A stretch of 64,000 nucleotides of DNA from Aplysia californica (GCF_000002075.1 NW_004798383.1:55631-119630); one strand, 5' to 3'. Shown: positions 1,504 to 36,700, counted from the stretch's first letter. Notes: generated from the letters alone by a model not told the origin. Translations and numbers: made by a program.

Positions 1504-2729
1504 GTAATGTATCTTTCCTTAGAAAGTTAAATGCTAGGGATTTTTCTAGATATAGATCTAGATTCTAGATCTGGCCGCCGATGCCGATACCATCACTGAC
1601 TGGCAAAGGAATAAAAGTAAACACACTTTCTAAAAGCTAATACTTCGTTACGGAACTCCTCCCCTTCGTTACTCCCTTGTCGTACCACTTTATCTATATG
1701 TGAGTTTAGAGGACTTTTAACTTTTGTTTAATCTAAGATCTTGATTAAGTTGTTCCTAAAGCAAGCATATCCCCTTCCCCAACAAAAAGAGAGAATATCC
1801 CTGCACCCTCTCTTCATACTGCCCACCTTTATATGAGTGAACTGGTTATATTCATATCATATCATCGTTATGTAAATTATGACCTTAAGCTTTAAACGTT
1901 ATTTTTCATTGAAAGTGGCTATTCTCACCCGCCCGGAAGTTCTCGCAACATCTACTCCTCCCCTCTTCTCTCTCTCTCTGTCTCTTTCTGAATACTGTCT
2001 ATCGGTGTGGACGATCAAATTGACCAAAACAAAGTTAAAAAATGATGTTAAAACACAAAAGTAAATTAATTTGGTTGTCTACAAAGATGCTACGGCTATT
2101 TAACTTTTCGAATCGAGCCGAACTACGCGGGTCGCCATTTTGTTTTGTTCTCTCTCTTTCTCTCTCTCACTCTCTCTCTCCACTGCACACATACAAAATT
2201 GTGCGCTTTCAGTAGGCTACAAGTACAGTTGTAATGGAACGTTTCTTCACAGCACAGAATTCTACAATTTTTCTGTTATCACAGTGTAAAATTCTGTGGT
2301 TTAGGGTGAACGCAAAATTTGTTGACACGCGCACCGGGTGAGAATAGCCAAAAGACTCGCCTGCACTATTCTCACCCCGGGTGAGAATAGAGGTGGCCTT
2401 TTTCATTATAGATCTAGTTGTTCTGTTCCTANNNNNNNNNNNNNNNNNNNNNNNNNNNNNNNNNNNNNNNNNNNNNNNNNNNNNNNNNNNNNNNNNNNNN
2501 NNNNNNNNNNNNNNNNNNNNNNNNNNNNNNNNNNNNNNNNNNNNNNNNNNNNNNNNNNNNNNNNNNNNNNNNNNNNNNNNNNNNNNNNNNNNNNNNNNNN
2601 NNNNNNNNNNNACATTGCATGAGAAGAAAGGAAGTAGATAGTAAGAAATGTTTTTGAAAAATGGGTATTCCAATGTAAAGCGTATTGAGCTACTTTTTTG
2701 GAAATACGCTAATATAAATGTTATATTAC

Positions 2730-2776
<47 letters not shown>

Positions 2777-11700: not shown

Positions 11701-14700
11701 ACCAGTCACATATACTTAGGATACCTTGTCGAGGGGAATATTATATATTATAATGATAATGTTTATATTGCTCATAACTACTTTTTTGTGGAAAAGAAAT
11801 CTAACAGAACTTTTAGAAGTGCTATTATTCCTCTTCATCTGTATATCTTTCATTGTCTCTCCAAGTCGGAAGGAAAAACGAAAGAGGAGGCCATGTACAT
11901 CAACAAATCTTTGTCCTTCCTGGAGCAAGTTGTGATAGCCCTGGCTTCTCGCACCCGTGACCATGTTCCGTTCAGGCAGTCCAAGCTCACCCACTACCTG
12001 AAGGACTCCATCGGAGGGAACTGCAACACGTTACTGGTTGCCAATATGTGGGGGGAGCCAGCCCAACTGGAAGAAACGGTGAGTTAATTATTTGTTTTGT
12101 TTGTTTTGTGTTTTAGGCCTTGTGCTCGCTGGGGGGTAAAATATAACCCCTTGGACTGTGAATACTTTTCATTAAAAATTCAATTAAAAAATTTCTTTAC
12201 ATGGGTTGCAAACTGAAGGTATACACAATACTCTTACATTATGTATGATCGACATTATTACTATTATTATGTACATGAAAGAAAATGCAGAATATAACCC
12301 TATATAAGTATAAGTAAGCAACAGGCAAATGCATGGCTAAAACAAACACAGCTGCATGAATGCAAATGAGGTATTTTCGCCTGTTCATCTCTCTTCATCG
12401 CCAAGTGATGTCATACTTAGCAGCCGTGTGACAAGTAGAAAGTAGAAATTCTCCTCGTAGGCCTATGCCTGGGGCATTAGGAGCAAGTAGATGTTCTTAT
12501 TCCGATATGAGGTAAACTTTGTTCTGTGAGAGAGTGGAGTTCATCATCTTTGTTCTACACTTGCCTCTCAAATTTTTTCACGAGGAATAATATTGACCTG
12601 AAATGAAAATGAAGATTAAAAACTCAAGTCCTTTACACTTACCGTTCACTGTTGTGATTGTATTTTAGGAAAATATAACGGGTTTCAGCTCAATTGATTT
12701 TTCAGAACTATTGATAACACTTCTTTTTTGGCAAATTCCAGAGGAAGAACTAAGCCTTAGAACTCAAAGATAGTTATAATAATATATCAATTTATATAAA
12801 ACCTTATCCCTGGAGGACTCGACGTACTGCACAGTGCAAAATTATCTTTCAATACAACTTACAAATCAAATGACAGAAAATGTACATTTTTCCAATTTAA
12901 CACTATACACACTCACACACAGGCCCACACACATTCTCACAATCAACAACTAATGACAGGCAATGAGATAAACAGTGCATCAGTAACATCTCATAGAAAT
13001 TAATATTAATCTTCAAACGAGCTGGTGGTACACATTATTGAGCGATTTATAACAGTAAATATCTTGTGAGAAAATATTCTGGAATGGAGAATTGAGGTAA
13101 ATGCAGAGTGAATTAATGTAACTGTTCGTTGCTTTTGTCAGGTGTCCACGTTGCGTTTTGCCACCAGGATGATGTGTGTGGCCAGCGAACCAGCCGTCAA
13201 CGAAGTCTATGATCCTGCGGTGAGCATCGTTGTGGGAAAACTTCCTTTTGTTCTTTTCACTGATATTTCAATACGATTAATTTTTGTCTTCTAGACATTT
13301 AGAAAGTTTTGAAATTGTTAGGTTGTGGTGGGAATGATTTAAAAGTATAGCAGTTGTATGTGAAGATAAGATGATCCATTTACCTCCTCATTTTTAATAT
13401 TTCTATATTATAAAAATACAAGATAATATACTATTTTGATTGATGCTGTAAGAATAACAATGCGCTGAATGCATATCAAACAATTCATGCAGCTCTTCTA
13501 AAAAAGAAAAATAGATTGTGGGTGAGGTAGGAAAAGGCTGCTGAACCCTTCATTATTAATTAACTTACTGATGTTTCATTTGTTTCTCAAAACATTTCTG
13601 TAATTCTTAAAACTTTTTTCCAGTTGTTGGTGAAGAAACTCCAGAGAGAAATTCAGCATCTGAAGTCAGAGCTGGCAATGCACGACACTTTGGTAAGAGA
13701 TCTCCATGATTTTTTTCTTTCATGACTATCATAATATTTTTAAAAATCTAAGTGTAAGTATGGATCGTGAGGAACTTGGAAGATCAGGTTGTTTGTTTTC
13801 TAAAAAAGTATCTTGTGAAATGGCATCAAATGATATGCAGTCTACTATTCTTGGGGAGATATGTCACCTTGATTGTATGGATTTTTTGTTACAAGAACTG
13901 TAATTATGTGATCATCCATGGCTCAATGGTTTTTTGGATCATTGAGTTGAGTACTTTGATGTGTCCTGTCTGTCAGAGGCTATCACATGATTGAGAATAT
14001 GAATTTCATGAAGATTAATTTTTGTTTTGTACACCTCTTCCCCCCCCCCCCCCCCCCTCCCCAACTGTTATTCACAGACAAACCGTAGCATGGTGTGGTA
14101 TGACCCTCTGTCGGAGCAACAGAAGTATGAGATCCGAACTCAAGTCAAACGTTACCTGGATGGAAGTCTTGATGAAATCGATGTGAGTATTCCTATTAAT
14201 GCTATCTCTGTGAACAGCCTCAAGCGTTTTCTAAGAGCTGTTGTCTTTAGGCCCACTGCTCATTTGACTCAGACCTCTTGCAGATGAATGATAAATAGAA
14301 ATAGCCATACTGAACGGAAGGGATGATAAAACCGTAACCACATATTGATGTATATGGAGCTGTGAAGACTTTTTTTTTTGGTACCTAATCAAAATTGTTG
14401 TTAGTTCTCTTCCCACCTCTGGGCTCAGTGATTTATATGCTTTGTGGATGTTTTGTAACACATGATGAAACAGATGTTTTCTTCTTTCTCTTTTTCAGAT
14501 CGTGAACATACGGCAAATTGTTGGAACTTTTGAGTCCTTTAGAGAGTTGTATCTGTGAGTGCTTTGGGAAGCATTGTATCAAAATATTACAGTTTAAAAA
14601 TGTTCATGTTATGAGTAAAGAGCTTAGAGGGTAGTGTCCTTTTTACGTGAGACCATTGAATATCTTTGCTTCTCTTTCTATTGTTTTCTTCAAAAATGTA

Positions 14701-17700
14701 AGCGGGCAGTCACAAATGGGGAAGGAAAGCTATAAATTAGACATATCTCATTAAACGCAAATTTTAATTCTTGTGAACAGTGATATCACGAATATTTTGA
14801 TGTTTGTTGTGGTTCTTCTTTGATTTTTTAATTTTTGTTTTGTTTGTTTTTTGTGGAGGGAGGAGGGTGGGTGGGATGTTTGTTGTTGTTCATTTGTTTG
14901 CTGGTTTTGTTTTTTTTGGAGTGGGGGGGAATTAAAGCTGTAAATAAATGGTGCAAAAATGGATATCTCACTCAAATATTTTATATTAGTAATGAACTCT
15001 AAATAATTGATATTTCATCTTTTTTTTGTGCCTTTTATTTGTTCCTCATTTGACAGGGACATGGAGAAGGACATGGAAGCCCGGCTGAAGGAGAAGTACA
15101 TGCTGATTGACAAGAACGACCCAGCATCCATCGCGGCCGCCCAGCAGGTTAGTGACCTTTGCCTTGACCTCTTAGAATTTGTGTAATTTCTCTCAATAGA
15201 TCTGACTGACGTGAAATGTATTATTGGTGTTTCTAGGGTTTGTTGTTTTCTGTCAGCTTACACAACTTGTGCTCTGTGTGGAATGTTTGACTACTCTTGC
15301 TTGCAGTGCACGGGTGAGAAGCATAATTTTTTAAAGTTGAGGACTGGGCTTGATGTTATTTCTCATTTATTTTAGGTCACGCATGAAGTTTGGGTTTGGT
15401 ATTCAAATAACTTTGTGTGCATGTCTGTGTATGTATGCATGTGTGTTTGTGTGCTTGTGGGTGTGTGTATTTGTGTGTAAGAGTGTGATCTGTGTGACTG
15501 TGTTTATGGTTGGGTGCGGGTGTGTATGTGTGTGAGAGAAACTGTAAGAGTTATAAATTTAGAGTCAGTAGTCAAACCTCATATTTTGCTTGTTGTCAGA
15601 ATAAATATTTCACTTGACACATCTTTAACTTACCACAGTAATGTGTACGATACTTGCAACATGAAAGACTATGTGTTCTGGTTATGAAAAGTTAAAGATT
15701 TCATCTTAAAAGAAATATAAGTGTGGGTCTGCAAAGATTTCTCTTCTACAAAAGGTTAATTCACTTAAATCCATTTCATCAGAGTCATATTCCACACACG
15801 GCGTCACTTTTGGCCCGATTCTGTTACTTTTAGTTAGCGTGACTCAGTAGCCCGCCGGAGCTCCCCGGCTCGGGGTCTCAGGGTTAATGAGCCTTGAAGC
15901 GACACTTCCGGTGTCGGTTAAGAAGTTCACATTTTTGTCTACGTTTGAAACACTATAACTTCTTCCCCATTCCACACCAAAAACCATGACACTGATGTAC
16001 TGAAAGCTCAATGTCTTGAGATTTATTCTGCGTTAAAATGCTTAATTTCTGTGCCTTAGTTTTTGTTCTAGGCAAGTGTTTGTAGAGTACCCAATTTGCC
16101 CTATTTTAGTTACAAACGTATGAATAAATTATTGTTTATTTAAAAACGCCACAACAGATCTCTCCCAAACATTGTTAAACTGACTACGAATATCATGTCT
16201 TTTACCATGAGAAATCTTAAATCTGCACAAGTAGCAATTATCAAGTTATAAGAGAAGAAAGTTGCACATCTGTATTTTTTAAACTAAAAACACTCAGTGT
16301 TAGCTCTTGTTCTACCACTAAACAAGAGAAAGTTACTCTGTGTTTGTTCATGAATCATGATGGGTCTGTGGCAGCCTGCATACAACTAAGAAAGGTATAT
16401 TATGCGATTTTTTAAAACACAAAACTGTGTAAATACATGGATAGAGATAAACTTCTTGTATGGAATAAAAATAATTACAGCTAGCACCTTCATTCTTAGT
16501 TTTTGTGTCAGAAATATGTGCGTACACTTACGAATGTAAAGAAATCAGAACTCTGTCAGTTATTGCAAATGGTAACAGATACGAAAATAAAAGCTGGAAA
16601 CGTCTGGTGCTGATTCAGTGTCACTGAAAACTAGAAACTATTCTTATAATCCAAGTTATCCTTGTTATTCAGTCAACTTACAAAACCGAGGCTTAGCATT
16701 TTAAGAAAAGTAAGGAATTTCTGGAGTGTAACACTAACAGATACTGTTCGTGTATTGCATCATAGATGTATTCTGGCACTAAAATCGATTTGTATTACTT
16801 CATATAGAGACTACAGGGTAATTTTTATAACTTTTCAAGAAAATATGTGAATATTCATGATTATATTGGACACATAAAGTTGTGTTTGGAGGAATTACTT
16901 CATAGTGAATTGTGTGCCAGATGGATAAAGTTGCAAAATTACAGCTTTCTATTATATGCGCAGATATAATCTTTTCTGAGTATCTGCACCACTGTTATGT
17001 TGTTCATGTTCCAAAAGTTCGACAGTTTTTGTCGTGCTGTTTTTTTATAATGATTTTTTTTTCCTTCACAGTTGTCCAAAAAAATTTAGTATTTAGCTTT
17101 GCCGACTTGAAGAATAACCAGACAAACTACAATGGTCGTTCTTTTTTGAGTCTCAAGAGCAGAAATGCATGCTTTGGGTGCATAAAATGATAATTACCAT
17201 AAATACAAGGATACACCTAAAACAGCATGCTGAAAAGTAACAAAAATTAAGTCAGCCCAATCAGATCGGCGACAGGGGGCTGACCCCTGTGAACCTGACA
17301 TGATAAGGCGCTCGGTGGGGAACCCCCTGCTGCAACTAAAATTCCACTGCCGATGCGCTGTACGCAGTGTATTTTTGTGAACAGTGAAGCTGAACTGATT
17401 AAATTTATTCCTCCGAGATGTCTTTGAAATTGGCCTCTGCTTTTCTATAGCAAGTCAGTTTTGGGGTGAGGAAAATTTTTTACGTGATTTGACAGTCCAA
17501 AAAAAAATACTGAAATTTATTTTTCTTAAGCTTGAAGAATGATGATTGACTTTCACTTAAAGGTCAATAGTGTGTGATTAAAATGGGACGATATTATTTT
17601 GTAAGACAATAATATGTTTCTAATGTAAGTTTTCTAAGATCAGAGTAGGCCCACCCACTTTGATCTTCTTTCTTTGTCACCTTCCTACACAAGTATACAG

Positions 17701-20700
17701 TTTCACAAACGCATACTGACTTCCACACTCTCTTAGTCTTATGTGAACAGCAAACAGCTGTTGATAAACAGTCAGTTGCCTTGGCCCATCCTTTTCTTTC
17801 GCCCNNNNNNNNNNNNNNNNNNNNNNNNNNNNNNNNNNNNNNNNNNNNNNNNNNNNNNNNNNNNNNNNNNNNNNNNNNNNNNNNNNNNNNNNNNNNNNNN
17901 NNNNNNNNNNNNNNNNNNNNNNNNNNNNNNNNNNNNNNNNNNNNNNNNNNNNNNNNNNNNNNNNNNNNNNNNNNNNNNNNNNNNNNNNNNNNNNNNNNNN
18001 NNNNNNNNNNNNNNNNNNNNNNNNNNNNNNNNNNNNNNNNNNNNNNNNNTATCTCTGTGTCTTTCTCTTTTTCTGTCCCTCTTTCTCTCTATCTGTCTCT
18101 TTATCTCTCTCTANNNNNNNNNNNNNNNNNNNNNNNNNNNNNNNNNNNNNNNNNNNNNNNNNNNNNNNNNNNNNNNNNNNNNNNNNNNNNNNNNNNNNNN
18201 NNNNNNNNNNNNNNNNNNNNNNNNNNNNNNNNNNNNNNNNNNNNNNNNNNNNNNNNNNNNNNNNNNNNNNNNNNNACTCACACGTATACACATATTTCCA
18301 AGCGTACATTATGCATGCACACACACACAACACACACATATGTACTGACTGGCAAACACATTCACACGCACATAGATATATGCACCATCCACGAAAACAC
18401 GTAGAAAGACATGCACTCTTTGGTTTTCATTCAGATCTTGATTCAGAAGCTGCATATTTCTCTACTTCTTTGTGAACTGAGAAAAAGTTGAATGCAAGGC
18501 AAAGAGTATCTTACTCATATCAGAATGAATGGCCCCGGTTGGAGTTGAAATAATCCCCCATTTCTCCAAAATTAAAAATGAGTAACCCAGTGAGATATGT
18601 CCGTATGATAAAGAAAGAAAGATTTTCACCCAGATTAACCAATCACTTTAATCTTAATCTGTAGATATTACCCAATCACAAGTAATGTAAGATAAGGTCT
18701 CATGTAGAACCCAGACCTGTTAAGAATATCCGTACTTGTATCGACTTTGTCTTAATGATTTACTGTCTTTGCATCAGTATGCAAATTAGTACAATAAAGT
18801 ATTTACATTTACTTTTCATTAAAACTTTACTTCTCCGTTTCCAGTGTCTTTGGTTTTTTGACAACCTAATAGTCTGTAGACTTTGAACCACCCCCATTTT
18901 AAAAAAAATAGTTTAGAATGAACGTCAAGTTGAGCAAAGATGTTAACCGATTTTCGTTTTTACTAAATCACTGATTTTTGCTTACCTTTACAAGACTCCA
19001 ACTTTTTAACACATTTTTGGGAAATGTTTTTTTTTCTGTGTTCTCTGACTTGAGTTTTTTTTCCACCTGTTCTGTCGTTTTCACTATGAGTAATTTGACT
19101 TGTGCGTGGTTTGTTTGACTCTGTCGCTTTCACTATGAGTTATTTGACTTTTGTGTTGCCTTTTTGACTCTGTCGCTTTCACTATGAGTAGTTTAACTTG
19201 TATGTGGTTTGACTCTGTCGCTTTCACTATGAGTAGTTTAACTTGTATGTGGTTTGACTCTGTCGCTTTCACTATGAGTAATTTAATTTGACTTGTGTAT
19301 GGTCTCGGTGCCAGGACTTAACCTTGATGCTAGATGCCCATGAGAACCCAGCGAGTGAGGTACAGCTTCTTCGTTTGATCAATTTTCTCTTCAAATGTTT
19401 GGATCTTACCGACTTGCTTTCTCCATGCACAGCTTCATATCGTACCTCATTACACTTGTTTTGACACTGATTTTTTTTCCTTGGGTGTGTGTGTTTATGA
19501 TCATATTGTTCATTATTTACTTCTGTTTGTTGTACAGATGTACCCGCTGTCAATGTCGTGTATTACTTGATTTCAACTTTCTTTCTTGCTTCTTTTTTTG
19601 TCAGTTGTATTTTTCTTGTATGATATATATTATATGTTCGCACAAAAGAGAAAGATGCCATTTTTATGTATTAGTAGAGATTTGAGCTTGAAAACATAGC
19701 TTTAGGCATGTTTTCTCCAAGTCTAGCACCATGTCTATTCTTTAAAAAAACCCACATTTTTGTTCATAATACATTCACCAAATATATCCATTATATTACC
19801 CATAACACTGACAGTAATGGTTGAGAATTGCATTTTTGAAGTAGATGTTATCCAAAGCAATTCTTTTGTGACGCTTAAGTTTCCATTCTACAATATCTCA
19901 AACGTAAACATAACATCTGGGCCACAGTTTTTAAACACTGCTTTTAATACTTGTATGATCACATTAATACAAATTTCTTGGCCAAAAAAACAAAACAAAA
20001 CAAACACCCTCCCCCCAAAAAACAAAACAAAAAACAAAACAAAAACAAACAACAGAGATTGGCATGTCGTGAATATTAGCCTGCATTTTGACAATAAGGA
20101 TTCTTTCATCATAAATGCAATCATATCGCTTACGACAAGGCATGGGCTGAAATATTCATGTTTTTTCGCTGTTCTTTGATTCTTTTTGTTTGTTTGTTTG
20201 TTGTTTTTTTTTTTTGTAATTAGTTTTCAATTTAGTTTTACTTTCTTTCAGTTTGTGCACCATGATATCCCTTTTCCCTTCTCTTTTTGGTGTAGAGAAA
20301 AGATTAATTTTTCAGCTTACTGAAAAAAAAGATGCAGTCTCTCTTTTGTGTACTTTTTGTGTTAAATGTAATAAGAAAGCTTTGCTTGCAAGTGTCAGTT
20401 TAGAGTAAATGATTGCTTTAAGTTTTGTGGACTTCAATAGGCCTACTCTTTTGTATTTCTTAAACTTCAGGATGCACCATCATTGTACATTTTGACCTCA
20501 TGATCACCAATCAGATTTATTTCTAGTAGGGAATTCACCCAATAGGTTGATAGAAAACAGTTCTTATATTCAAAGTAGCTTTGTCCTCAAAGTGTGAATT
20601 TTCAACATGTTTTCAATGCTATTTTTCAGTTAGTATAAAAAAGTTGAATGGAAATGAAAAGGATTTACTCCCATTTTTAGGGTAAAAAGCCATTAACCCC

Positions 20701-23700
20701 ATACAGGCCTTGTTCTTTTTTCTGAATTGTTTAATGGGAGGGAGGGGGGCGTCATCTCTTCTCTGTCGTCTTTGCCCAGAGGGGACTGAGATATTTAAAT
20801 GTGTAAGTCCAAATAGTTTTCGGTCCCATCAACAGGGTTCCTTTCACCTTACCATTAATTGAATGTAACCCACGAACAAGAGTAGCCTGTCTGATACAAT
20901 GGTGCAACCCCCCCCCCCCCCTAAATTGTGTCATCTGACCAACTTTTTCATGCTGAGCTATCAACACAGGGTCAGCATTTCTTACAAAAACAAGACAACA
21001 GATATATACCACTCCCGAACCCCAAAGAAAAGAAGGGACAAAAAGAAAACCTGCACATACTCTGGAGATATAAGCTCTTTATGAAATGTAGACCTACGAT
21101 TCGAATTGTATATGTATTTCAGTTTTTTTGTCTCATGCCTGTGACTTTTTCATGATGATCTTTCCTCAAAATCACAATAAAAAGTAGATGAGAGTAATAA
21201 TTAGCTAGGCTTTTAAACTTCACAAAAAGAAAAATAAGCATCTGCTTCCTCAGTTTTCTAAATGAGCTCCGCTCCGTACTGATAATACAATGAGAACATT
21301 TCTCTTTTATTTCTCCCACCCTTTCTTCCGTTTCAGAAAACAGTAGCGTTTTAGAAAATAACACCTCTATTCACCTCATTAACCCTATCTGTATTCCCTG
21401 GGGTCTTTTTGTACCCCCGGGGTTGTATTCTTCACATTTGAGAATGCTTTTAGTACAAAGATTTCTTCGAAACTTTCTGTATTTCTCAAAAAATCATTTT
21501 GACAGAATGCTATGCAAAGCGTATGGATAGGAAAACGAACAAATTTCCTCTTTGGAAAGTGGTGGCACAGAGTTCCCCACGTATTATGGATACGATAGTA
21601 AAACACGACGTACGGATAGGGTTAATAGTAATCGGTTTATGGTTTGGAATTGTTCAGTTACAGTTACTTCCATAATCAACATATTTTGTTTCATGTTTCA
21701 AACTAGCTTTCCTTTTCACTTCTCAAGGCTGGTGTACCCATTGCTGATGATGGTTCCCTCGTCGGTGATCTGGAGGGTGGAAATTTTGGACTGGGTACGG
21801 CGCCGAAAACATCCAAGGCCGACTCCTCCGCTGTTGTCCAGCTGAAGAAGAAAGAGAGGGAGAGAGACAGAAAGCGTGGATCACGGGGAGCCACGTAAGT
21901 GTAAAGATTAATTTTAAAAAAGTTGTTTTACTTCAAATGTTTTAAAATGTCAGATCAAACACATCAGCTTTATGGGAAGTTGTCGTCTTTTCTGTCAAAC
22001 GTTCAAAATCATCTCTGGTTCAGGTTCCCCTGTATCTTTTCTCTGTATTCAGTATCCCATACCCCTTCTAATTCTACCCCCCCCCTGTCAGTATGGTTGT
22101 GCCAAAAGCAATGTTAGAGTCTATAATCAGTGTCACGGCACTGCATCTCAGAAAAAATGCCTTGGACATTGACTTGCCAATGTATACATGCTTAATGGGC
22201 AATACGAATCCTTCTTTGGAAAGTGTGTCTTCAAAAGTAGATCCTGTGAAAGTGACACGACTGTGTCAAAAGAAACATAAGAAGGAAATCATTGTATAGT
22301 GTTTGTCAAAGATGTAATTTTTAGAATTGGAAATGTATGTAAGAAAAAAAAAACGCACCAAAAACTAATGATGTGATTATCTTTAAGGAATTTTAGTTAT
22401 TTCTTTAGGAGATTGAGTATCTCTTTGGGGAGATCAATAATGTAAAACCTCATGTCACCTCACCTCACCTCGCCTCACCTCACTTCACGTTGCCTCACCT
22501 TATCTCACCTTACCTCACTTCACCTCTCCTTCATAAGATACATTTTACTCTTTGACTCTCTGTATGTGCTCAGGAGCCCTGTAGCTGGAAAAACAGCTTC
22601 CAGCCCATCCCACAGTGCAAAGGGTGAGCGCAAGATTGAGTCTCCGACAACACCTGGAGGCGAGAGGGCAGACAAACCGGAGAAAGATCTGGAAGGTTCT
22701 GCTTCCCCTGTCAGCTCTGCCGGGAACCTGTCTCGTTCGGAGAAAGTCCAGAGACCCAGGTTTGTTCAGAAGAAACTTTATGATAAATGTTTCAGGTTTG
22801 TAGGTTTTTTTTTCATTATAAGGTTTGGGAATTTTTAAAAAAAATGAATTAAAAAATGTATAAATAAGAAAAGACACATTATTCTTTATGGCATGAAGAA
22901 ATGATCATGTTGCCTACTTTTGTTCTTCTTTCCCTGATTTTGATCAGTTTTTTTTCATGAAACAGCTCTTGGAATAGTCATCAGTTCTGGTATGCTATTC
23001 TGAAATCTTCAACTCCTAGCATCACATGCCTACCGTCCAGTTCAGTTTGTAATGATGACAGAATGGACAAGAACACGGTTAAGGTGGCACGTACAACAGT
23101 GTTATCTGATCTGTCTTGTTTCTTGTTTGAGAAACAATGGGAAACACTTTTATAATGAAGAAAGAAGCTTATTGTCAAATTAAACTTTTTGAAGTTTATC
23201 TATCTATGAGCACTGGGGGGGGGCATTTTGTTCTCGGTAGTTCAGAGTATTATTCATCCTTTTTTCAAAAACTGAATTGTGAGGTAATGTTTAAGATTTG
23301 GCTTGTTATTTGTCTCATTGTTTAGTAGGAATTGGTATGCTATAAGCTACAGATTCCATGAAGAGTAAAGTAGGAAATGTAATTTTAATTGACTGATAAT
23401 TTGTGGGACATAATATAGCATGTTCTTAATGCCTTCTTACATTTCAATGAATATTTTATGATCTGTTAGGAAAAAAACACCCGCAGTGGAAGAGTTACCT
23501 CCAGTAGTTGTCAAGTATGGAAAAACATGTATTGTGTGTTTGGTGTTTTCTGGCGAACATATCATGTTCCATATCAATAAGCTTGGGAGTTGTGGTCTAG
23601 CTTTGTTGCAAGGAGATGGCTGTGTACTCCTTACTTACCTCTGTCTGCTACATGGGGCTTTGAAATCCCTTTGTGGTCCAAAATTGACTGGTGTTTCAGT

Positions 23701-26700
23701 AAAAGTGTTTAGCTGTATCATGTGTCATCCCCTATAGTTTGTTTTCAGTCCTGAATCAAATCAACTGTATGCTTACCCTTCAGTTCTTAGTCTAACCTAA
23801 ATATTTGTAAAATTCAATCAAGTCAGATTTAAATCCTGAGAATAGTCAGCGGATGAAACTTAAGAGTTTTTGCATTCTTCAGGTAGATACATACTTCACA
23901 TTTAGTGAAAGGGTAATGGTTAGAAAAGGTTTAACGAAATCAATTTTGACGGGTATGGTATTGTACAATAGTTTGTCTTTCACCAACTAATAAAGGCTAT
24001 TCAGTTCTTCTATATGAAAATTTGTTTTTATCATTAGATGACTGTAAGCTAATTCATAGGTTAGAAATTTCATAAGAAAAGAATTTAGATAAATGAAAGG
24101 TAATGCACTCCATTAGTAAGTTTGAATTTCATTCTCTGACTTTTTTTGTACTTGTTAAGTGCTTTATTTTTCAACGTGTCCTTGGATTTGTCTGTAGCTT
24201 TGTTATACGTATAAAGCGTTGTATCCTACATTTCCCTTCATGTACTTACATAATGCAAGAGTGTTGTGTATACCCTCCATTTGTAACAAGTGTCAAGAAT
24301 TTTTTAAATTGAATTCTTGATTAAAAGTATTCACAATCCAAGGGATAAAAAAACACAACCAAAAATGAAAAACATAGCATGAGGAAAATGATTAAAATTT
24401 GTTGGCATGTACTCACAGAAGAAAAAGAAAAAGGAAGGTGGAGAAGAAAAATAAGTGATGAAAGAGAAGACGGACAGGGATAAAGAAACACAGAGACAAA
24501 GGAATAAGTTAAGGAGTCCGTTGGTTTCAACAGCAACATACATAATATTATGAAGGCTAAAATTATCTACATGTTTTTGTGTAAGAAGGAGAGAAAGGTC
24601 TTATGTTTGCCTGACTAACATCTGTGCAATGCACTGGGTTTATTGTTATGTTCTTGTTGTTCCCTCTAACCCCATCAGTAGATTGGCAGAGGATGCTGAA
24701 AGGTATATCTTTGGTTTTTCCTTTTGATTTTTCCCTTTTCATTTCTTCCTTTACTATTTTATTCAGCTTTGGTAGATTCTACAGCTATATTTCTTTAACC
24801 TGGAAAATTGAATTAGCTCCACCCCCCCCCCCCCAAAAAAAAAGTAAAAAATTAGATTAAATAATCCCTTTATATGTCCAATTGCATATCGCATATACTC
24901 CCAGCTTGCTGTTCTGCTTAGGCAGCTACTAAACTTTATCTTTGCATAACCTACAGGAGCATTTCCCTTCTCAGAATGGATTATTTACTTTGATGAGGAG
25001 AAGGCATCTCTTTGTTGTGATGTTTTGTGTTCTGTTTGCTTTCCTCCTTTTCCTTCTATAATTTGGCTTAGGTTCATCTCTTGTTTGTTTTTAAAATGTG
25101 GTTTTTTGTTGGGGGGTATGAATCCTGAAAGAATCTGTTCTTGCGATGATGAGCTCCGACTTTGCCAGTTCATGTGCTCTTCTGTTACTCTGTCATGTTT
25201 GGGATTACTTTTTGACTAAATGCAACCAACTAATATCTTTATCATTCTGAAAACCCAGTTTTGTCGTGTGACCCCACCTGTAGATTCTCTTCTTAATTCT
25301 TTTTCAGGTTTTCTTGTTTATTATCCTCTGTAAAAACTGTCTCCTGTAGTGTGAATGCTTTATATTTAGTTTAGATCGAGATGCTTAGATACAGTTTAAT
25401 ACATGTAACCTAGTAGATATGTTAATCCCCTTTTCTTGGACTGTACCTTGCTCTTCTCTTCCTCTTATTCTCTTTCTGTCTTATGGTCAGCCTTAGGTGA
25501 AATTCTGATTACTTCTGCCTGTCTGATTTGGTCACCATAATTTTTCTCTTCTACTTACATGTAACTTGGTATAAATCCTTTTGTCCTTTCTCTTGCTATT
25601 GTACATTATGTAATCTATCTTGTCCATAGTATCTGTTTTTACTAGAACCTTTCAGACATCTAACACGCTCTAATAAAGACCAGCTTTGATAGCTTCACGA
25701 AATAATGTTAAGAACAAATGTTCATTTACTCAAACCAGTGGAGTAGGTGAGGAGGGTGAGGAGCCTGCCGAGGAAGAGGAGGAACATGCAGATGGACCTC
25801 CGACTGAGTAAATCCAACAATGAAGTTTTCAATGTATTATTTGCTTCTGAGTTCCTTGTTGGACTTTTTTTAAAGCAGATCATCACAATCTTGAGCACCC
25901 TGGACTTTTTTTGTTGTTGTTTTTTTTACTTCATGCCTTTGAATTTTTTAGTTCATTTATTTAGGACTGAATTGTTCTTTTAGGTTTCCTTTTTATACTC
26001 CAGTGATGTTCCCGTTCTTTCCTCCAGATCTGAAAAATAAAGTAAAATCTTTTTGTCACTTGAAAGTCACAGTACTCTTGATGCATTACTGTTTGCAAAC
26101 ATACATCTCTTTATTTCTTCACAAAGTTTCATCTTTGTCTCTGTGTCCCTTTTTTATTTCCACGGAATGGTTTCCTTTCACATATGGTATTCTTCTCCTA
26201 GCAAAGACAGGTGATGTGTAGGTCTACTATATACACTTCTGTTAGTGAGATGGTCCTTGTGAGTGAAAATACAGTGTTCATTAAGCACAGGTGCAATGAG
26301 TAAATGTTCTTTGGAAATACTTTTCCATTTTATCCACTGTTACTGTTAAGCATCGAGGGGTTCTTTGAAAAAACATTTTGTACCTCTTTTAAATGTAAAC
26401 ATTTTACTATGTCAAGGAACCGTTTTAATAACAAGCAATTTTTAACAATATCTTAATCAGTATGGTATCATCATTAACCTAAAGTTATTAGCCAAATTGT
26501 ACCAGTACCTACATGTGCTATATTATATAGAACTCTCAAAGCACTTCTGCAGTCAGTTGTTCAGTTTTAACAATTACATAAGTTGTATTTTCCCATCACA
26601 TAACTTCTTAGCAGCTTTGTACAATGTTCACTGTGTCACAGAATCAAAATGTATTGAAAGAATAAGTGATCTTGACCCAATGCAATAGAGGGAACTTTTA

Positions 26701-29085
26701 ATGATATCGAAATATTTTTCTAGCATTTGTAAAATCAGCACCCGTAAGAGGACACGTGCGTTAATCAGGAAACAAGACCACTTCACAGGTTACTTACTCC
26801 CTCTGGCACTAGCAGTCAAAGCAATCTTCAAAGAGATTTAGATGAGAAGTGTTGGGCTAAAACCGTGAAAATTAGTTTTAGGCTTGGCATGTATGAGATG
26901 GGTTCTTCTTTGTTTTTATTATTAGAGGTGTCTCCAAGAATGAAGGAGAAAAATAAGAAGCAAATTTAGAACTGTGTTTGTCCAAGAAAAAATATTATTG
27001 GCATTCCACTCCTGTGAACTGGCAGAAGTGCTGAAAAATAAAATAAAACAGAGTTTTGTAACTATTCTTTAATATTTGCCGTGAATTACTCTCGCAGAAA
27101 AAGAAGCTATCTTTGCTAAATCCCTGATTGAACATGATCAAATTAAAATTTCCTGGAGTATCTGTTGTTGTAGATATTTACTCTTCAAAGGAACACAGCT
27201 GGTTATCAAGCAGATCAAATTAACGATTCCTTGTTGTTAAATGTCTTTTTTTCTATTTAAAAACAACAACAATAAAACTATTCAGCACCATGTTTTCATT
27301 CATGTTTCAGTTGTTTGGTATTTTATTTTTCAACATTTCGTTTTGGGCACTTTCTGTAGCTTCTGTCAGCACTGAGACACTGATGACAACTACATATTGA
27401 CTAAGAGCAGAAGAAACAAACAATAGCACTAAATGAAGGCAGCAACAGTTTTGATAACAGAAGATAATTAGAAGTGTTGCAACAGGCAAAAACTTTGGAA
27501 AGAATAAATTCCACAACTGCTATTACTATTAGATTGTCAATCCATTATTTTTATCTTGTTTTGTATTACAGAATAACCTATAACTGTGTCAGTCTAGCCT
27601 AACAACTGCAAATCTCACATTAATCACTCAGCACAGCGGGTGGTTGGCAAGTGCTCTGGAGTGGTTTGCTCCTTCTTTCCTATCAAACATCTATCGTCCT
27701 TATCTCTTCTCCTTTTTTGTGTTTGTTACTCTCTTGTAACACTTCTTATCTTCTGCCCTTATATGACCTTATTGTGTTGCAAGTGCCATAGAACTCTTAC
27801 TAAAACTAAAATTCAGCACAGGAATATACAAACATGAGTGTAACAAAATATGTTGTTTCCCTTTATATTGTGGCTACTTCTGTCTGTTTGGCTGAGCAAA
27901 TAGTTGTGAACTATTGCTTTACACTTATTGTTTGTTATACAACATTGACCTGACTAACTTATTGTTGTTTTACTCAACTTACATCTATCTCTAGCACTCC
28001 GCCAAGTAGAACTTCAGCCTTTGAAGATTTTAAAGCTGAGAAGGGCAGTGAGATCAACAGAGTACTCATTGGAAACAAAGGTGAGTTGTGAACTGATCCT
28101 GTTGGGTTTGATTTCAATAGAATAGTCGAAATTGTCCAAGATGGTCTGTCATTGCGTAGGAGAAAAAAGGTTGTCTTAGACAGGTGGATGTCTTGGACAA
28201 TGTCATTATTATATAGAGAAAAGGTGCGCNNNNNNNNNNNNNNNNNNNNNNNNNNNNNNNNNNNNNNNNNNNNNNNNNNNNNNNNNNNNNNNNNNNNNNN
28301 NNNNNNNNNNNNNNNNNNNNNNNNNNNNNTTTTGGGGGGGGGGGGGGGGAGGCGAGAGTGAGAAGTGGTTGTTTGTTCTGGTGGTTGTCTTGAACAGATG
28401 GCCATTAGAACAGGTTCAACTGTGTTACTCTTGCAGTCCACAAAGGGTGATTGAAAGATTTCAATACTGCTGTGAGGAGCAACTTTATTTCCTTTTTTGG
28501 AAACTATTTTTATGAGCAAGCAGCCCACATGGGCTTCTTCAAGCACATCCTCATTTTTATTTCTTTTTCTACCAAGAATTTCTTAGCGGGAAAAGAAATC
28601 AAATGAGGTTTGAAGAAACCCACTTGGACTCCTTGCTGATAAAAACAATTAGGAAGAAACAAACATAGTTTCCAGGACACTTGAATAGATGTAAGAGTCA
28701 TCTAGCTGTCACTGGCAAAATGGAAGGTAAATGAGGCATGGATAGACCCATAGCAACTTACTTGGAGTTGGAGAGCCTGACTAATGCATAATGGGGAAAG
28801 ATCAGGATAGTATAGCTTTTCTGAGAGAAAATGAACAAAGGAATGAATGGAAAACCATGATTGCCAATTTCTGTCACATATCTGGCACTTGTTGATGATG
28901 ATGATGGATAGTAGTTAGTGGGAGATGCTCTGGTGTGGATTTTCTTCTTCCATTTCTTTTCAGAGTTATTGTTTTCCTAATCACTTCCAAATGATTGAAA
29001 TGAGTTGTGTGACATTGCAATTCAAATCCGCTATTTAAAAACAGTTTCCTAGCACTTTATAACCATGATCATGTTATTATCTTTA

Positions 29086-29132
<47 letters not shown>

Positions 29133-30244
29133 CATAAATATGAAATATTTCAACTATGATGTGACTGAGCCATTCAGCTTTGATTTAATGCTTTTAGAGT
29201 TGTTTCTGCTCAGTGTATCAGTCCATCTATATCAAATCACTTCAGTGAAACCCTGGCAGCTCCTTAGTTACACAATAGTGGCCAATACACAATGTGATTG
29301 AGCACAGTGCTTTGTATAGCACAAACAATTCCTAACTACCCCCTTGCTTTCTTAATATTCTTTTCAGAGGAACTGGCTAAGAGGAAGAAAGCGTACTCTG
29401 ATCTGGCTAAGGACGTGAACAACATCAAAGTTTCCATTGACCAAACTAGGCAAAAGCTGGAACAGCTTAGACAAATTAGGGAAGCTGAGGGTGAGACTTG
29501 CATTTTTTTACTTCCGTTATACAGTGGAGTCTGCTCAACTCTTTATCTCCGGGTTGAGACTTGCACTTTTTTGCACTTCTTTATTCAGTGGTGTCTGCTT
29601 AACTTTTTATCTCCGAGGAGGGTAAACCCACTATGCCAGGGCCTTCTTTTGGTACAAAATCTTAAAGTGACAAATATACCTGACTAAATTTTTCATTAAA
29701 TCAAAACAAGTGAACCTGTTTTGATAGTTCTTCATCTAATGAATAAGCTCCCGGTAAAAGAGACCTGTTTTCAGCAATTGCCGAAAAGTTGTAAAGGAAT
29801 CTTTTGATACAGAGAGGTCACTCAAATAGAAGAAAAAAATAGGGGATTTTGTTTTCTTTCGATTTACTGCTATTTTTGCATCAACTACGAAATCAGTTTC
29901 AGTGGACTCCATTGTAGTTCCTTGCTCTAAGACTCACAAATTCGACACTGTAATAGATAATTTAAGCCTGTATTTTTAATGTAACTCTGAAATTTAATTA
30001 GCGGTCTTGTAGGCCTACCTCTTTTGTCATGACTGGGTGAGAAAATATGTGAAAAAAGAAAGATAATGATCCGAGGTTGGACTCANNNNNNNNNNNNNNN
30101 NNNNNNNNNNNNNNNNNNNNNNNNNNNNNNNNNNNNNNNNNNNNNNNNNNNNNNNNNNNNNNNNNNNNNNNNNNNNNNNNNNNNNNNNNNNNNNNNNNNN
30201 NNNNNNNNNNNNNNNNNNNNNNNNNNNNNNNNNNNNNTCCATTC

Positions 30245-30301
<57 letters not shown>

Positions 30302-30732
30302 TTCACTCGCACTCACACGTGAATATCGGTATAAATGCACACATATCTTCTCATAATCACAGACAATTTCTTAATGTGCGGAACGGGGGAGGAGCGGTTA
30401 TTCAAATCAGATTAGATTCATTTTCAGTACAGATCAGAGAACTCATAAGTGTTCTCCCGTTCTTGATCTCTTACAGACTAGCGTCAAGACTCGTAATTGG
30501 ATGAAGAAAGAATACATGGGAATTTGCGTGTTTCTAAGTTGTTAGAATCGCCGGCCATGTCAAGAAGTGGGCAGACCCNNNNNNNNNNNNNNNNNNNNNN
30601 NNNNNNNNNNNNNNNNNNNNNNNNNNNNNNNNNNNNNNNNNNNNNNNNNNNNNNNNNNNNNNNNNNNNNNNNNNNNNNTCTCTCTCTCATATATACTTGT
30701 TTTCAAGCATGAATGGCAATGATATAAACAAA

Positions 30733-30767
<35 letters not shown>

Positions 30768-33700
30768 AGATGTAATTGCGAGTACTGCAAAACTCTTACA
30801 ACAGCTACTACCACTACCCACTTACATACACAACTAACTATAACCTTACTCACTCTTTGTCATCCTAGGCCCGATCCTGAACGAGGATGGTGACATCATC
30901 ATCAGTGAGGAGGAGTTCATGGAAATCCAGCGGCTGAAAGACCTCAAGATCAGCTACCGCAGCAAGTATGATCAGCTGCATAACGGCAAGTCGGAGGTTG
31001 TCTACTGTCAGAACATGGTGGACCAATGTCGGCTCAAGCTCATACAAGGTAGGCTACATGATTTAAGCCTCTCAAAACTTGTGTATTTTATTTGTTTAGC
31101 CCAAACAAGGTACATTCATCATCATCATGCAAGTTTAGCCCTAGCTCATACAAGGTACGTTCATCCCCTAAAAAACTTAGTGTTTAATTTGTTTTACACA
31201 AACAAGGTATGTTCATCTTTTGATTGTGAGTTTAGCTCATACAAGGTAGGCTACATAATTCATCCTCTCAAAACTTTTGTATTTTATTTGTTTAGCCCGA
31301 ACAAGGTACGTTCATCATGTGAAGCATTCTGGTGAAAAAAGGCACTGGGCAAAATAATTAAATCAAATAAACAGGCATTTTCCTGCCAGTGTTGCAATTT
31401 TTAGCAAATTTTTTTTATTTAGCTCTACACCGTTTATGTCCATATAAATACTTGAATTTTACTGAAAAATGTTGATTGAAGGCACAAAAAATATAAATTG
31501 TTAGTTTTCAAGGAGTCGAAAGCTATTGAAGTTTGCAAACTTTAGTGGCAATTTTCTTGCTAAATTTACCTTTGAAACCAAGCGAGACCCACCTCCTTCA
31601 ATGGCAAATATTTTGACTTCTTTTCAAGATAGATGGATATTTTAACAAATCAAAAGCAAGGCAAATGAATAAACTTTTAGATGATACCACTAACTCCACA
31701 TACCCAAAAATTGATAAGCGTCTGATTCCACTGCGTCATGACACATATCTGTTCAAAGTTCATAACACAGAGGTAATTGAAGTTTTCATGCTTGTAATTA
31801 GGGTGACATTTTTGTTTTCTTGCAGAGTTTGACAACTGGTACAGCGAAAGTTTTCTCTCGGCAACTGATGAGAGCCAGACAAGTCTCGGGGTCGGCATCG
31901 GCGGTAGACCGGGAGTCATTGTGCCCATCACAAGCCTGGCGGTCAGTCTGTCTTCATACGTCCACTGTCTATGTTTGTAGATGACTTGTTTTAGATTTAC
32001 ATCTCGAAAAACTAGTTGAAAATGTGCTGGTCAAAACTAAGTTGCTTGTTTGTGTGTGTAAAACTGATTAGTTAACGTTTGGGGTAAATCACTCAGCACA
32101 ATAACTGTCCAACCTGTTATTACACCCACAGAACCCCTCCCTCTCCCCTTTTTAAATAATTATAATAATAATGATAATAGATAACATTTGTATTGCGCAA
32201 ATTCCAACTCAACAACAAGCTCAGTCTGCCTTACAATCTATTTTATTACCCCAGCAGACCCAATAACATTCTGAAACAGTCACAACTTCCTGTGAAGCAT
32301 ACAGTGCAAGCTGCCATTTTACAGGCACTTAAAACACTATTAACATACTCAGACAAGATCTTTCGCCGTCTATGGTCCCATACCCATTCACATCTGGGTG
32401 AAGTGAGGAAAATTCATGTAAAGTGCCTTTCCCAAGGACACAACGTAGTGCCTGAGGCTCGAACCCCCGAATCCGCGACCTCATGATTACTTGTCTGGTA
32501 GCCCATAAACTCTATATCCATTAAAAGTAAAAGACTTAGATTTTACCACTTTTTCCTCAATCCCCTTCTTTACACTACAATATCAATTGTATCAGGTTTC
32601 CCAGAGTCTGCAGAATATTGAAGTTTGTTTGACAATGCCTGTATTCATTTCTTAAATGTAATTATCTAACTTTAATTGCAACTTACTCCAGTGATGTTTG
32701 CTGACTTATTCATTTAGAAGAAAAACTGTGGGTGGATACTGCAGTTTAATTTTGTGACAAGTTTTTCATTACTGGGAACACTGATGCCCTGATACAGCAC
32801 TGCAGCAAATAAAAACTACATCTTTCCGGACGTGAAATATAGAAGGATGTAAAAACTCCCATCTTCAAAGCCTCATAGTATTCATATAATAAGCAGTTCA
32901 TCAAGATACCAGCTGGTATTAGGGATGGATGTTCTTTTATTTTTAACTTTCCTAATGATTCTTGATGAAGAAGTAATGCTGTAGTCCGATGCTAATAGTC
33001 AATCATGAAAAAAACCCGTTTTATGTTTTAATTAAGAGTTTTACGGCACTTGCAACACAATCACAGTGGAGTCTGCTTAAACTGAACACGGTTTATCTGA
33101 AAAGAGCGATAAATTGAAAGAAAAGAACATCCTTGATCTTTTTTCTTCTATCTGAGCAACCTCTCTAAACCAAAGATCTGGCTAAACCGAAGAAAATTCA
33201 ATGGTCCCGCAGATTTCGCTTTAAGAGGGCTTTACTGTTGGTCATTTAAGTGCTGATGATTAGAGGTATTACAAGATAGTAACAAACACAAAAAGGAGGA
33301 GCGATAAGGAGGATAGGTGATTGATAGGCAAGAAGGAGCTGATCACATGCAAACACCTGCCAGCTACCCACATAACAGAATACTAGCATGGTTATTTGTG
33401 ACTGCTTGACTGAAACATTTTTTTTTCTGTGTGTCTGGACAGACGGAGGATGAGCAGGAGAAGTTTGAGCGTCTACAGCTGGAACTGATGATGAACAACC
33501 CTGACTCAGCGGCTTTCTACAATGCTCAGATGAGGACCTCGAGAAGGGTGAGTGTAGGAAGAACAGTTTCTGTGACTCTACACGAGCACATGGTGTTTTT
33601 TTACAGCCCCCCGGCGACACTATTTAGATCAATTAAGAGGCAGGCTTCAGTCTTGACTGTCAAGGTCAACCTGGGTTGAGAGGGATGTAACATTCCAGCA

Positions 33701-36700
33701 TGTAAGCACCAAGATACTGTTAAAAAGTCTTCCCACATTGGAATCCAACTCAGGCCTTCTGTGTGTGACGGCAAAGCACCTAACCACTACACCACAGACG
33801 TCCAGATGTGTGTGACTGGTACTAGGGATGCATGAGGCATCTAAAAATTTTCAGTTTATAAGATAATATACTGATTTTGAATTATACTTTTTAAATGTTG
33901 GAAATGACTATACGATTACTTGACGAATAGCCAAAAGAAAAAAAGATCATTTGTATGCACCCAGGCATAAAACACATTTTGGAATCAATTACTCTAAACG
34001 GCTCTTACCAAATTTTTGCTATATAAATTACACATCTTTAAGCATGGTAACACATTTTGGACTCTAGTACGCTAAATGGCTCTTACTGAATTTTTGCTAT
34101 ATAAATTACACGTCTTTAAGCACGGTAATTTCGGCTTCGGGGACGCTTCATTTACAAGACAGTCAATACTTTCATGATGACCCATCGAAGTTCGAACACA
34201 GTCTACACTGCAGCAGTGAATGTGTTAAGAAAAACACAAAGAACTCAAGTGATGGAGACACTCACACACACTCGCGCGAAGAGGAAGGCAGAGAGATGGA
34301 CATAGCTGGGCACGTGGACATGGGATCTAGCCTAGGGCAAAGCTACACACAGACGGAAAAAAAACAAAGAGAGTTGGGGAGACTAGAAAGGGAGGCTGGC
34401 TGCGATGTCACCTTTGCCTCTCGCTATCTGATAATCCTGAATGTATCACGCGCGAGGTGGGATGAAGGTGGTGGTATGAATGTAGCACAGCGGGCAGTGG
34501 TACGCACATGCAGTGTGTAGGCCTAGTGTGCTGTATCGTGACTGGCTGTCCAAATTTAGTTTTCCTTTCCCATTCGACTACAAAACAAAACGAACAAAAA
34601 CTACCATGGCGGGTAAAAATGACTACGCACACTTTTGTGCGATCACTGCTTACAAAGAGAATAACTAAGGAAATTTTCTAAATAAAAATCTCTGGATTAT
34701 GACAATGTCTACTTCGTACTCAAGCACGCTTCGGCATTAAGCATGCTTATGCTTTCTCCCGATGACCGTGCTTAAAGCCGGCATGGACTGTACAATTTCA
34801 ATTTTTTAGTTTTTGAGCGATAGTAGGCCTAGATCCTAAGAATTTGTCAACTTTGGCGATGAAGTTTTCTTCTGGGATAACTTTCTTGAAAGCTGGCCTT
34901 GTAATACATGATGTAGTAGTACACCTTCACTTGAGCAGCAAACCGGGCACCGCTTGCCTGCAATCCTTTACCATGTATAGCGTAACCTATGACTGAATGA
35001 GCTGAGCAAGAAACTAATTCTAATGTACTTTACATCTTCTTCTTGATAGAATCACACTTGAAGACCAGTATCTATCTTATACTGGGCCATCCTGCTCATC
35101 TCTGTTGGCCTATATAACTCCTCCTGAAGTGTTAATGGGGTTGGCCACGTTTCATATCCATGGGTCTCAACTCAGAATTCCAAAAAAGGAGGAACTTTCC
35201 AGGAGATCGCCACAGAAGCCCATTTTCGCGAAACACCCATTATTATTATACTGTTGAACCCTAGAATGCTGAAATAAAAACCATCAATTTATCACAGCAA
35301 GGTTATTTCACACTAATTTGAGAGTTTGGAAGATAATTTCAAGTAAGAGTCACGTACCAAATATTTACAATCTTGATTACGTACAGAAAGTGGTGGCGCC
35401 TGGGGTCTTGTGTGACTTATTAATATTTTCCCTTCATCATATTCGCCTGTATACATAAACTATACAGAAATGAATCTTGTTTTGAGCCTGGAACCAGAAT
35501 ATCGACTGTCATGATTCATGTCATATATATAGGCCTATATAATAAACGTGAAAGACAAAAATAATGCTCAAACTCAAAGTACAGTAGAATAGCTCAAGTA
35601 GACCTATTCAGTGTGAGAGGTGTAAGAACTGTGGGAGGGCAAGATGCAGTGATACTGAGAATCTGCGAATCTTGAACAGAAAGCTAAAATATAGAGATCT
35701 AATTTACTGTCACCAATCCAATGAAACGCGAACACTCAGGCCCCTAAGTTCCATAACTCGTTTACAAGTTATGACCGTTCCCGATTTCATACAAGGCCTG
35801 CACCAACGCAGAGAGCTGAAGTAGTAATCAAAATTCTATACATTAAACATTTATTTTCAGTTTCAGCTTGTCTGTTTTTGTCCACAGGTGTTGCGTCCAG
35901 CCCTCCCCCTATCCCCGAGTGCGTCTTTTAAAAAAATCAATAATCTCCCCCCATTCCTGAGTCCTGTACTTCGCAGCACTCAGAATGCGCGCAGGCTCAT
36001 TGACCGGTCACAATGGCGAGCCCGACAAGACGCTTGTATAACTTTCTTTTCTTTTTTTTGTTTGTTGCCCGCACAAGTGACAGCACAGTGACGAATATTT
36101 ATTTATTTTCATGGCGACACCCCGTTTGTAATGCCGAACCTGCATGTTACAATAAACGTTGTGTTATCAGACAATTACTGACAAATTTCTGGATGGTAAC
36201 AAAAGCGAAAGTAGATCTTGATTTTCTAGTCGAGCATTGGTGACACAATTCCGCTTGCCGCCAAAGCCACTAGTTCGCGTGAAACGTACTCTCAGAGCCG
36301 AATTAATGTCACAATCGCGACCGGCAGAAATGAACTTATAGACGTTATTGGATATGGTTTTCAAATATTTGAGATCTTTTATGTATTTTCCGGGTCTCCG
36401 CCATTTTTTTTAAATTCCCGGGGCCTGGCAGTCACCCTGCTCCCAACAACTCTCTTTCTGATTGGCGCGCTATCGCGGTAGCGGAGTTTAGCGGAGGAAC
36501 TGGCGGTAGCGGAAATCCGCTAAATAGTGGACTATTGAGACCCATGGTATCTTAGGGCTGTGTGTCTGCACTGCTGGAGGATGTGTTCCAGAGTTTTACA
36601 GCCTTTGCAACGCAATAAGGTTATATAAATGCCGAAGATTAGAGGTGATGATACAAAGGAATGAAAAATACAAAAAAGAAGGAGAGATAAAGACAATAGA

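Follow-up and report, generated by a model that had tools for sequence, protein, structure and literature searches.

The stretch of Aplysia californica DNA analysed here (GCF_000002075.1 NW_004798383.1:55631-119630; 64,000 nucleotides (nt), called the window below, with positions counted from its first letter) carries the gene for KIF9, a kinesin-9A. Intron 14 of this gene interrupts the serine codon of a conserved Arg-Pro-Ser-Thr-Pro (R-P-S-T-P) motif and contains exons of 45, 24/21 and 69 nt. These are ordinary alternative exons, already annotated in RefSeq. The observation holds, although most of it was already annotated and is of a familiar type; its interest lies in the split motif and in two further candidate microexons of 6 and 9 nt. 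The gene and the two exons on either side of intron 14 are located as follows:

1408..37041, + strand: KIF9 (kinesin-9A) coding span from start to stop codon; the joined exons are identical to RefSeq XP_005111798-801 and XP_012945481-483.
22574..22759, + strand: exon 14, ending in Arg-Pro and the AG of a split codon (the 5' half of R-P-S-T-P-P).
27995..28080, + strand: exon 15, beginning with the C of the split codon, then T-P-P-S-R; start of the KIF9 tail domain.

An earlier note on this DNA, made from the sequence alone, had assigned the gene to KIF9, and this is confirmed by identity with the RefSeq proteins, by the Pfam domains Kinesin (PF00225, E 2e-94, residues 36-348) and KIF9 (PF23735, E 4e-41, residues 638-776 in isoform X1, where the tail domain thus starts at residue 638) and by mouse KIF9 from the sperm central apparatus as the best solved-structure match (E 3e-249, residues 5-821). 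Exon 13 of the window gives a 100% match to Aplysia californica KIF9, in a protein cluster with seven members, RefSeq X1-X7. The exon model built from the window places intron 14 at 22760-27994 (5235 nt, phase 2), with the same numbering as that first given for this 5.2-kb intron. The Aplysia protein matches mouse KIF9 over its full length and belongs with kinesin-9A KIF9/KLP1 of the C2 microtubule (PDB 9ijj, 7n61). KIF9/KLP1 consists of motor, neck, flexible linker and a helical tail, which in mouse binds CFAP65 (PMC12297659; 10.1101/2022.01.23.477438). By orthology, Aplysia KIF9 would be located on the C2 central-pair microtubule, as is known for mouse and Chlamydomonas.

Five segments in intron 14 had been proposed as cassette exons in the earlier note (23470-23514, 24679-24702, 25491-25496, 25739-25807 and 26202-26210). 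All five are preceded by AG and followed by GT, are multiples of three, are stop-free in the phase-2 frame and encode the peptides given for them, and no junction stop arises in any of their combinations (32/32). Frame and freedom from stops are by themselves no evidence for exons, because 103 of 374 AG..GT pairs of 3-27 nt in intron 14 are frame-preserving and stop-free. Three of the five segments are alternative exons in RefSeq:

23470..23514, + strand: cassette A, 45 nt, KKTPAVEELPPVVV; in RefSeq X4 only, with Asn as the junction residue before TPP.
24679..24702, + strand: microexon B, 24 nt, RLAEDAE; 24 nt in X1, X3 and X5, 21 nt in X2 and X6.
25739..25807, + strand: cassette C, 69 nt, acidic, GVGEEGEEPAEEEEEHADGPPT; in X1, X2 and X3, ending GA/GT (the slash marks the exon-intron boundary).

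When 96 exon combinations were compared with the seven RefSeq proteins (XP_005111798.1-XP_005111801.1, XP_012945481.1-XP_012945483.1), one exact match from window coordinates was obtained for each isoform (7/7). X7 has no cassette in intron 14, X4 has A alone, X5 has B, X6 has the 21-nt form of B, X1 and X3 have the 24-nt form together with C, and X2 has the 21-nt form together with C. Both inclusion and skipping of the 45-, 24/21- and 69-nt exons are thus on record in computed models. In place of the combinatorial splicing suggested earlier, the annotated use is ordered, with four of eight A/B/C combinations (none, A, B and B+C), C only after B (3/3) and A only alone (1/1). The exons had also been described as hidden, which fails for the three of five that RefSeq already contains; as cassettes the 45-, 24- and 69-nt segments stand, while the 6- and 9-nt segments are in none of the seven models. 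RefSeq computed models normally rest on RNA-supported introns, and models based on short reads phase exons imperfectly.

The 21-nt form of B (24682-24702) is produced by a tandem CAG-TAG acceptor at 24676-24681, and its length equals that of the counterpart in Elysia marginata. Since exon C ends in GA, the junction codon becomes Asp in place of Ser; the GA/GT donor is the poorest of the five segments (score -2.8). A strong donor, TAG/GTGAGG, is found after 25746 (within 25739-25752) with a score of 10.1, far above that of the donor used by the models of the 69-nt exon. An 8-nt exon using it would shift the frame and is found in 0/7 models. The tandem acceptor of B, an additional cassette in intron 12 and the splitting of the conserved RPSTP motif by the intron are additions to the earlier note.

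The skip form reads R-P-S-T-P-P, with its Ser codon split by intron 14, and every Aplysia inclusion form among the RefSeq isoforms loses the R-P-S-T-P motif. X7 has a single RPx[S/T]P, namely RPSTP, and the pattern is missing from X1 and X4. In an alignment of 40 sequences R601 is found in 32, P602 in 30, T635 in 39 and P636 in all 40, and mouse KIF9 carries the same RPSTP motif. Among 51 distinct sequence segments compared, 30 have RPx[S/T]P, five have Rxx[S/T]P and 16 have neither; 11 of these 16 carry an insert, and the remainder consists of sequences from scallops, skip forms of Pomacea and a single gene-call fragment. The position of the intron before TPP is the same in four genomic loci of distant animals (L002, L021, L023, L026).

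Judged by its sequence, R-P-S-T-P is likely to be a kinase site. The consensus of flagellar CDKL5/LF5 is R-P-x-[S/T]-P (PMC12711092), which in Aplysia is present in the skip form only. KIF9 of mouse sperm is phosphorylated at S514/S515 and S561, and the modification window in the row for S561 also marks 572, the Ser of RPSTPP (PMC7582274 supplement). Site-level phosphorylation of KIF9 was not found in the supplements of PMC12667522 and PMC13066092 or among the literature matches listed, and neither of the two papers found to name both KIF9/KLP1 and CDKL5 is, judged from its listing, about this site. With 186 nt and phase 2 at both ends, exon 14 is symmetric as well; it is rich in Ser-Pro, and its first SP aligns with mouse S515, which is phosphorylated in sperm. 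CILK1 is a further kinase with R-P-x-S/T-P as its consensus, but the part of PMC7140639 examined does not show it, and the consensus is therefore cited for CDKL5 only.

The earlier note placed the inserts in the stalk. In a fold from the 40-sequence alignment (mean predicted local distance difference test (pLDDT) 59) residues 480-634 have pLDDT < 50 and no secondary structure, and a helix begins only at 639, so the cassettes would be at the far end of the flexible linker before the tail and not within the coiled coil. A single-sequence fold, with mean pLDDT 41, was discarded. The insertion site is accordingly the end of a neck-tail linker that is predicted to be disordered. Between its neck and its tail, KLP1 is described as having a "highly flexible region" (10.1101/2022.01.23.477438), and the C-terminal coiled coil of mouse KIF9 is bound to CFAP65 in two conformations (PMC12297659). 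The claim that inclusion alters length and charge holds: the segment from exon 14 to TPP has 62 amino acids (aa) and net charge +2 in the skip form, and 93 aa and net charge -11 when the 24- and 69-nt exons are included. Full-length Xenopus Kif9 did not bind microtubules, whereas a form cut at residue 461 binds (10.1101/2021.08.26.457815), mouse Kif9 constructs showed no binding (10.1101/2023.11.09.564704), and the C-terminal half may or may not have a regulatory role. Two KIF9 bands have been reported as possible splice or phospho variants (PMC3020916). Among the literature matches listed, judged by entry and opening of the abstract and with few subscription journals covered, no paper dealt with Aplysia KIF9, with splicing of the KIF9 linker or with comparable molluscan microexons.

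The segment before TPP could be measured in 107 of 108 stored proteins with this anchor; the counts are of proteins and not of species, with isoforms and redundant entries separate, and exon boundaries in other species were derived from proteins and not from genomic DNA. A longer segment was found in 23 of 26 named heterobranch proteins, in 3 of 12 caenogastropod proteins (Pomacea, with unrelated sequence), in none of 43 other named proteins (bivalve, vetigastropod, limpet, cephalopod and non-mollusc) and in 3 of 26 unnamed proteins, and the insert-free proteins keep a spacing of 15-20 aa. The three unnamed proteins with an insert are full-length open reading frames on contigs of 3.2-3.7 kb, which are therefore likely to be spliced mRNAs. 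A metagenome scan gave 27 loci, none of them a close relative with the exon cluster of intron 14; the four genomic loci named above share the conserved intron position only. A search with exon 14 among 50%-identity representatives gave three weak matches, all of them unrelated repeats.

Exon B and its Elysia marginata counterpart (RLAEDAES and RLQEDMES) are identical at five of eight positions with a score of 27, and the next best linker window scores 11. Looser echoes of B are RLDESES in Biomphalaria, RPEDSES in Physella and KIEENER in Bulinus, and all 11 Biomphalaria proteins include B. B is followed by a further optional insert with Asp as its last residue before TPP in Aplysia, E. marginata, Biomphalaria, Bulinus and Physella. 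Biomphalaria and Physella have both skip and include models, the insert being absent from Biomphalaria X3 and Physella X2. By comparison of protein sequences the 24/21- and 69-nt exons have counterparts in four heterobranch genera, Elysia, Biomphalaria, Bulinus and Physella. The KIF9 models of Biomphalaria glabrata (X1-X4) and Physella acuta (X1-X3) and the single ones of E. marginata, Bulinus truncatus and Lymnaea stagnalis have the same arrangement of a short acidic insert followed by an optional longer one ending in Asp before TPP, but lengths and sequences vary, and the long forms of Hygrophila end in RPD/TPP, which restores the motif. Inserts resembling A and ending in Asn, probably homologous to it, are found in the stored protein P0002 and in Lymnaea, and in P0028 an A-like insert appears to be combined with a B-like one. 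Other optional inserts in KIF9 are found near the neck in Littorina (P0010/P0019/P0021) and at the exon 13/14 boundary in Haliotis (P0034/P0081), and Pomacea (P0038/P0097/P0100) has a 53-aa insert before the PP motif.

The two shortest segments of intron 14 are listed with the signals upstream of microexon B:

25491..25496, + strand: candidate microexon of 6 nt that would add Leu-Ser; 72-nt AG-free zone, 0.82 pyrimidine in the 60 nt upstream, TGC at -42, AG/GTGAAA donor.
26202..26210, + strand: candidate microexon of 9 nt that would add Lys-Asp-Ser; 73-nt AG-free zone, 0.73 pyrimidine, CAG/GTGATG donor.
24611..24678, + strand: upstream signals of microexon B; branch-point-like motif CTGACTAAC at -68, 79-nt AG-free zone, TGC at -71, -54 and -49.

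Typical of microexons that depend on eMIC are extended stretches free of AG, long pyrimidine tracts, strong branch points and UGC (10.1101/2021.02.24.432780; 10.1101/2024.09.17.613571); the UGC motif lies between branch point and AG and is found in 74-79% of known eMIC targets. The neural microexons controlled by eMIC (Srrm3/4, Srrm234) are frame-preserving and 3-27 nt long, as are the 24/21-, 6- and 9-nt segments, and by this measure the 45- and 69-nt exons do not qualify. The AG-free zone, the distant pyrimidine tract and branch point and the weak splice sites are shared by B and the 6-nt candidate, and by the 9-nt candidate in part. On the other hand, TGC lies 42-71 nt away from B and the 6-nt candidate, the 93 nt upstream of the 9-nt candidate contain no TGC and no branch-point consensus, and KIF9 is described mainly as a protein of motile cilia. 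The annotated exon B has a lower pyrimidine content (0.65) than either candidate, and an AG-free zone of at least 60 nt is also present at 6 of 17 internal constitutive KIF9 exons. The 6-nt segment was ranked as the weakest in the earlier note, yet none of the other four has a more pyrimidine-rich tract or a better acceptor score. A splice-site matrix from KIF9's own 18 introns gave no separation, with the annotated cassettes scoring below both candidates.

With the annotated exons cut out, the 6- and 9-nt segments are the sole frame-preserving candidates of intron 14 that pass any of seven filter settings, which combine AG-free zone, pyrimidine content and donor score. In local dinucleotide shuffles, 300 for each of four block sizes, two candidates arose in 0-3/300 at the three strictest settings, in 1-17/300 at two intermediate settings and in 33-95/300 at the two loosest. 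The same filters gave 0-3 sites in the 21,298 nt of the other KIF9 introns and 1-7 in 63,061 nt of the antisense strand. This test is suggestive only, because the thresholds were set after the candidates had been seen.

The chance that either segment is a further minor microexon of the same hot spot is a little less than even for each. That they are chance look-alikes, or recursive or cryptic sites that leave no in-frame exon, is an evenly weighted possibility. Their absence from the RefSeq isoforms is consistent with it, as are the absence of a corresponding insert from this position in all stored homologues, the shuffles that reach at least two candidates under loose filters and the missing TGC and branch-point consensus of the 9-nt segment. 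Both segments also end in AG/GT and would run into an immediate stop if the donor were skipped (LR-stop and KDR-stop). However, the strict filters are passed in only 0-3/300 shuffles, by 0-1 site in the other KIF9 introns and by one in the antisense strand, automated pipelines often miss exons shorter than about 10 nt, and a scanning spliceosome would first encounter an AG that lies 6 or 9 nt further upstream. Ten regex matches to the 6- and 9-nt inserts were rejected, since they are Biomphalaria and Bulinus proteins in which the match sits at the exon 13/14 boundary. A search of transcript fragments for the microexon peptides gave two matches, neither from Aplysia.

RNA reads were mapped to 19295-28200 from four of 24 listed runs, two of raw polyA reads (runs X21 and X23) and two of contigs (runs X6 and X8). 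The KIF9 exons are at near-zero depth in both raw runs, with depth 0 over the exon-14 bin, and at this depth no KIF9 splice joint or cassette joint was present among the 15 joints listed of 96. The joint between exons 13 and 14 is present in contig record 10 of run X8, and record 5 of run X6 spans the 69-nt exon unspliced (25632-25814) and may be DNA or pre-mRNA. The mapping is dominated by dispersed repeats at about 21380-21625 and 27636-27811, which have very high depth in all four runs and are probably short mobile elements inside introns 12 and 14.

Intron 12 contains another cassette, at the opposite end of the same linker:

19315..19359, + strand: phase-0 cassette of 45 nt, DLTLMLDAHENPASE; in six of seven RefSeq isoforms.

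A similar peptide is found in P0007. Other inserts at this site are present in oysters (4 aa, SEYE), Physella, Biomphalaria and P0006, so that the intron-12 hot spot is more widespread than that of intron 14. A tandem array at 19071-19290, with 4.7 copies of a 45-nt unit, ends just upstream of the acceptor of the intron-12 cassette and may supply upstream signals. Elsewhere in the window, a fragmented region resembling an LTR retroelement (about 48510-51978, + strand) has matches to zinc knuckle, reverse transcriptase, RNase H and integrase in separate open reading frames.

The exons of intron 14 may act by remodelling the last residues of the linker, which would add length and negative charge and remove the likely kinase site R-P-S-T-P; the balance of arguments for this is about even. 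A splicing-controlled phospho-switch in the KIF9 linker is plausible from the sequences compared. The skip form would be the ancestral one, carrying a phosphorylation site just before the first tail helix, and inclusion would give a form that escapes phospho-control or imitates it through the junction Asp. The result might be an altered docking of the tail on the C2a base (CFAP65), or an altered fold-back on the motor. In favour of this, the acidic exon keeps its junction Asp in five genera although GA/GT is a poor donor in Aplysia. An extended version is decidedly improbable, in which a heterobranch splicing switch determines whether the residue before the tail helix is a Ser that can be phosphorylated, an Asn or an Asp that mimics phosphorylation, and up to five exons, including the two unannotated ones of 6 and 9 nt, set the kinase control of the motor by cell type.

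Several observations weigh against a phospho-switch. The mouse mark on Ser572 is weak because the examined portion of the PMC7582274 table has no row of its own for it, and the mark is on Ser and not on the Thr predicted by the CDKL5 consensus. The 11 of 15 supplement files examined from the CDKL5 paper (PMC12711092) gave no match to KLP1/KIF9. The long forms of Biomphalaria, Bulinus, Physella and P0007 restore RPx-TP, which those of Aplysia and E. marginata do not, and scallops and Pomacea are without the motif even when there is no insert. The RefSeq isoform entries are computed models, the cassette junctions are known from these models only, and no junction read for any cassette is among the joints listed at the low depth given above. 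The ungapped scores of B against Biomphalaria, Bulinus and Physella are 12-17 compared with 9-14 for background windows, and homology of B in these three genera therefore rests on position and composition. The Asp common to five genera may also be plain common descent.

A rather unlikely alternative to the phospho-switch, though one with substance, is a pure tuning of length and charge, in which the exons are spacers in the flexible linker and modify the reach from motor to tail or the electrostatics between them. Since any insert in intron 14 splits the motif, RPSTP would then be lost only incidentally. The shift from 62 to 93 aa and from +2 to -11 agrees with this, and so does the wide variation of the inserts between genera while B and most C exons remain acidic. 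Unrelated inserts are likewise accepted by the second hot spot, in intron 12 at the opposite end of the linker, and the long forms of Hygrophila keep RPxTP. However, 7-8 more residues would make little difference to a linker that is already about 133-150 aa long, conservation of both the spacing and the R-P before TPP extends from annelid to mouse, and the C exon of E. marginata is not acidic yet keeps the junction Asp.

It is distinctly unlikely that the exons reflect a nearly neutral birth of exons with little function, in a disordered linker whose symmetric phase-2 boundaries tolerate any in-frame insert. Fast turnover of sequence is seen (Pomacea has an unrelated insert of 53 aa, and the segment in P0007 is longer by 87 aa), splice sites are weak, and inserts are missing from all 43 proteins of bivalves, vetigastropods, limpets, cephalopods and non-molluscs. 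Against this, B is identical at five of eight residues between Aplysia and Elysia, the order of B followed by C with the junction Asp recurs in five genera, and B is included in every Biomphalaria protein. A free combinatorial module with up to 32 tissue-specific stalk variants is hardly credible, since only four of the eight A/B/C sets are used among seven models, with C never without B and A never with B or C, and the site is not coiled coil, even though all 32 combinations are stop-free and P0028 seems to combine A-like and B-like inserts.

If real, the 6- and 9-nt exons would extend the thin record of molluscan microexons. The KIF9 linker is not resolved in the KLP1 structure, and whether the motor is active or immobilised is disputed (10.1101/2021.08.26.457815; 10.1101/2023.11.09.564704). 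A lineage that repeatedly splices exactly through RPSTPP singles out this motif as a candidate site of control over tail docking or autoinhibition, and this would extend to KIF9 of mouse and human.

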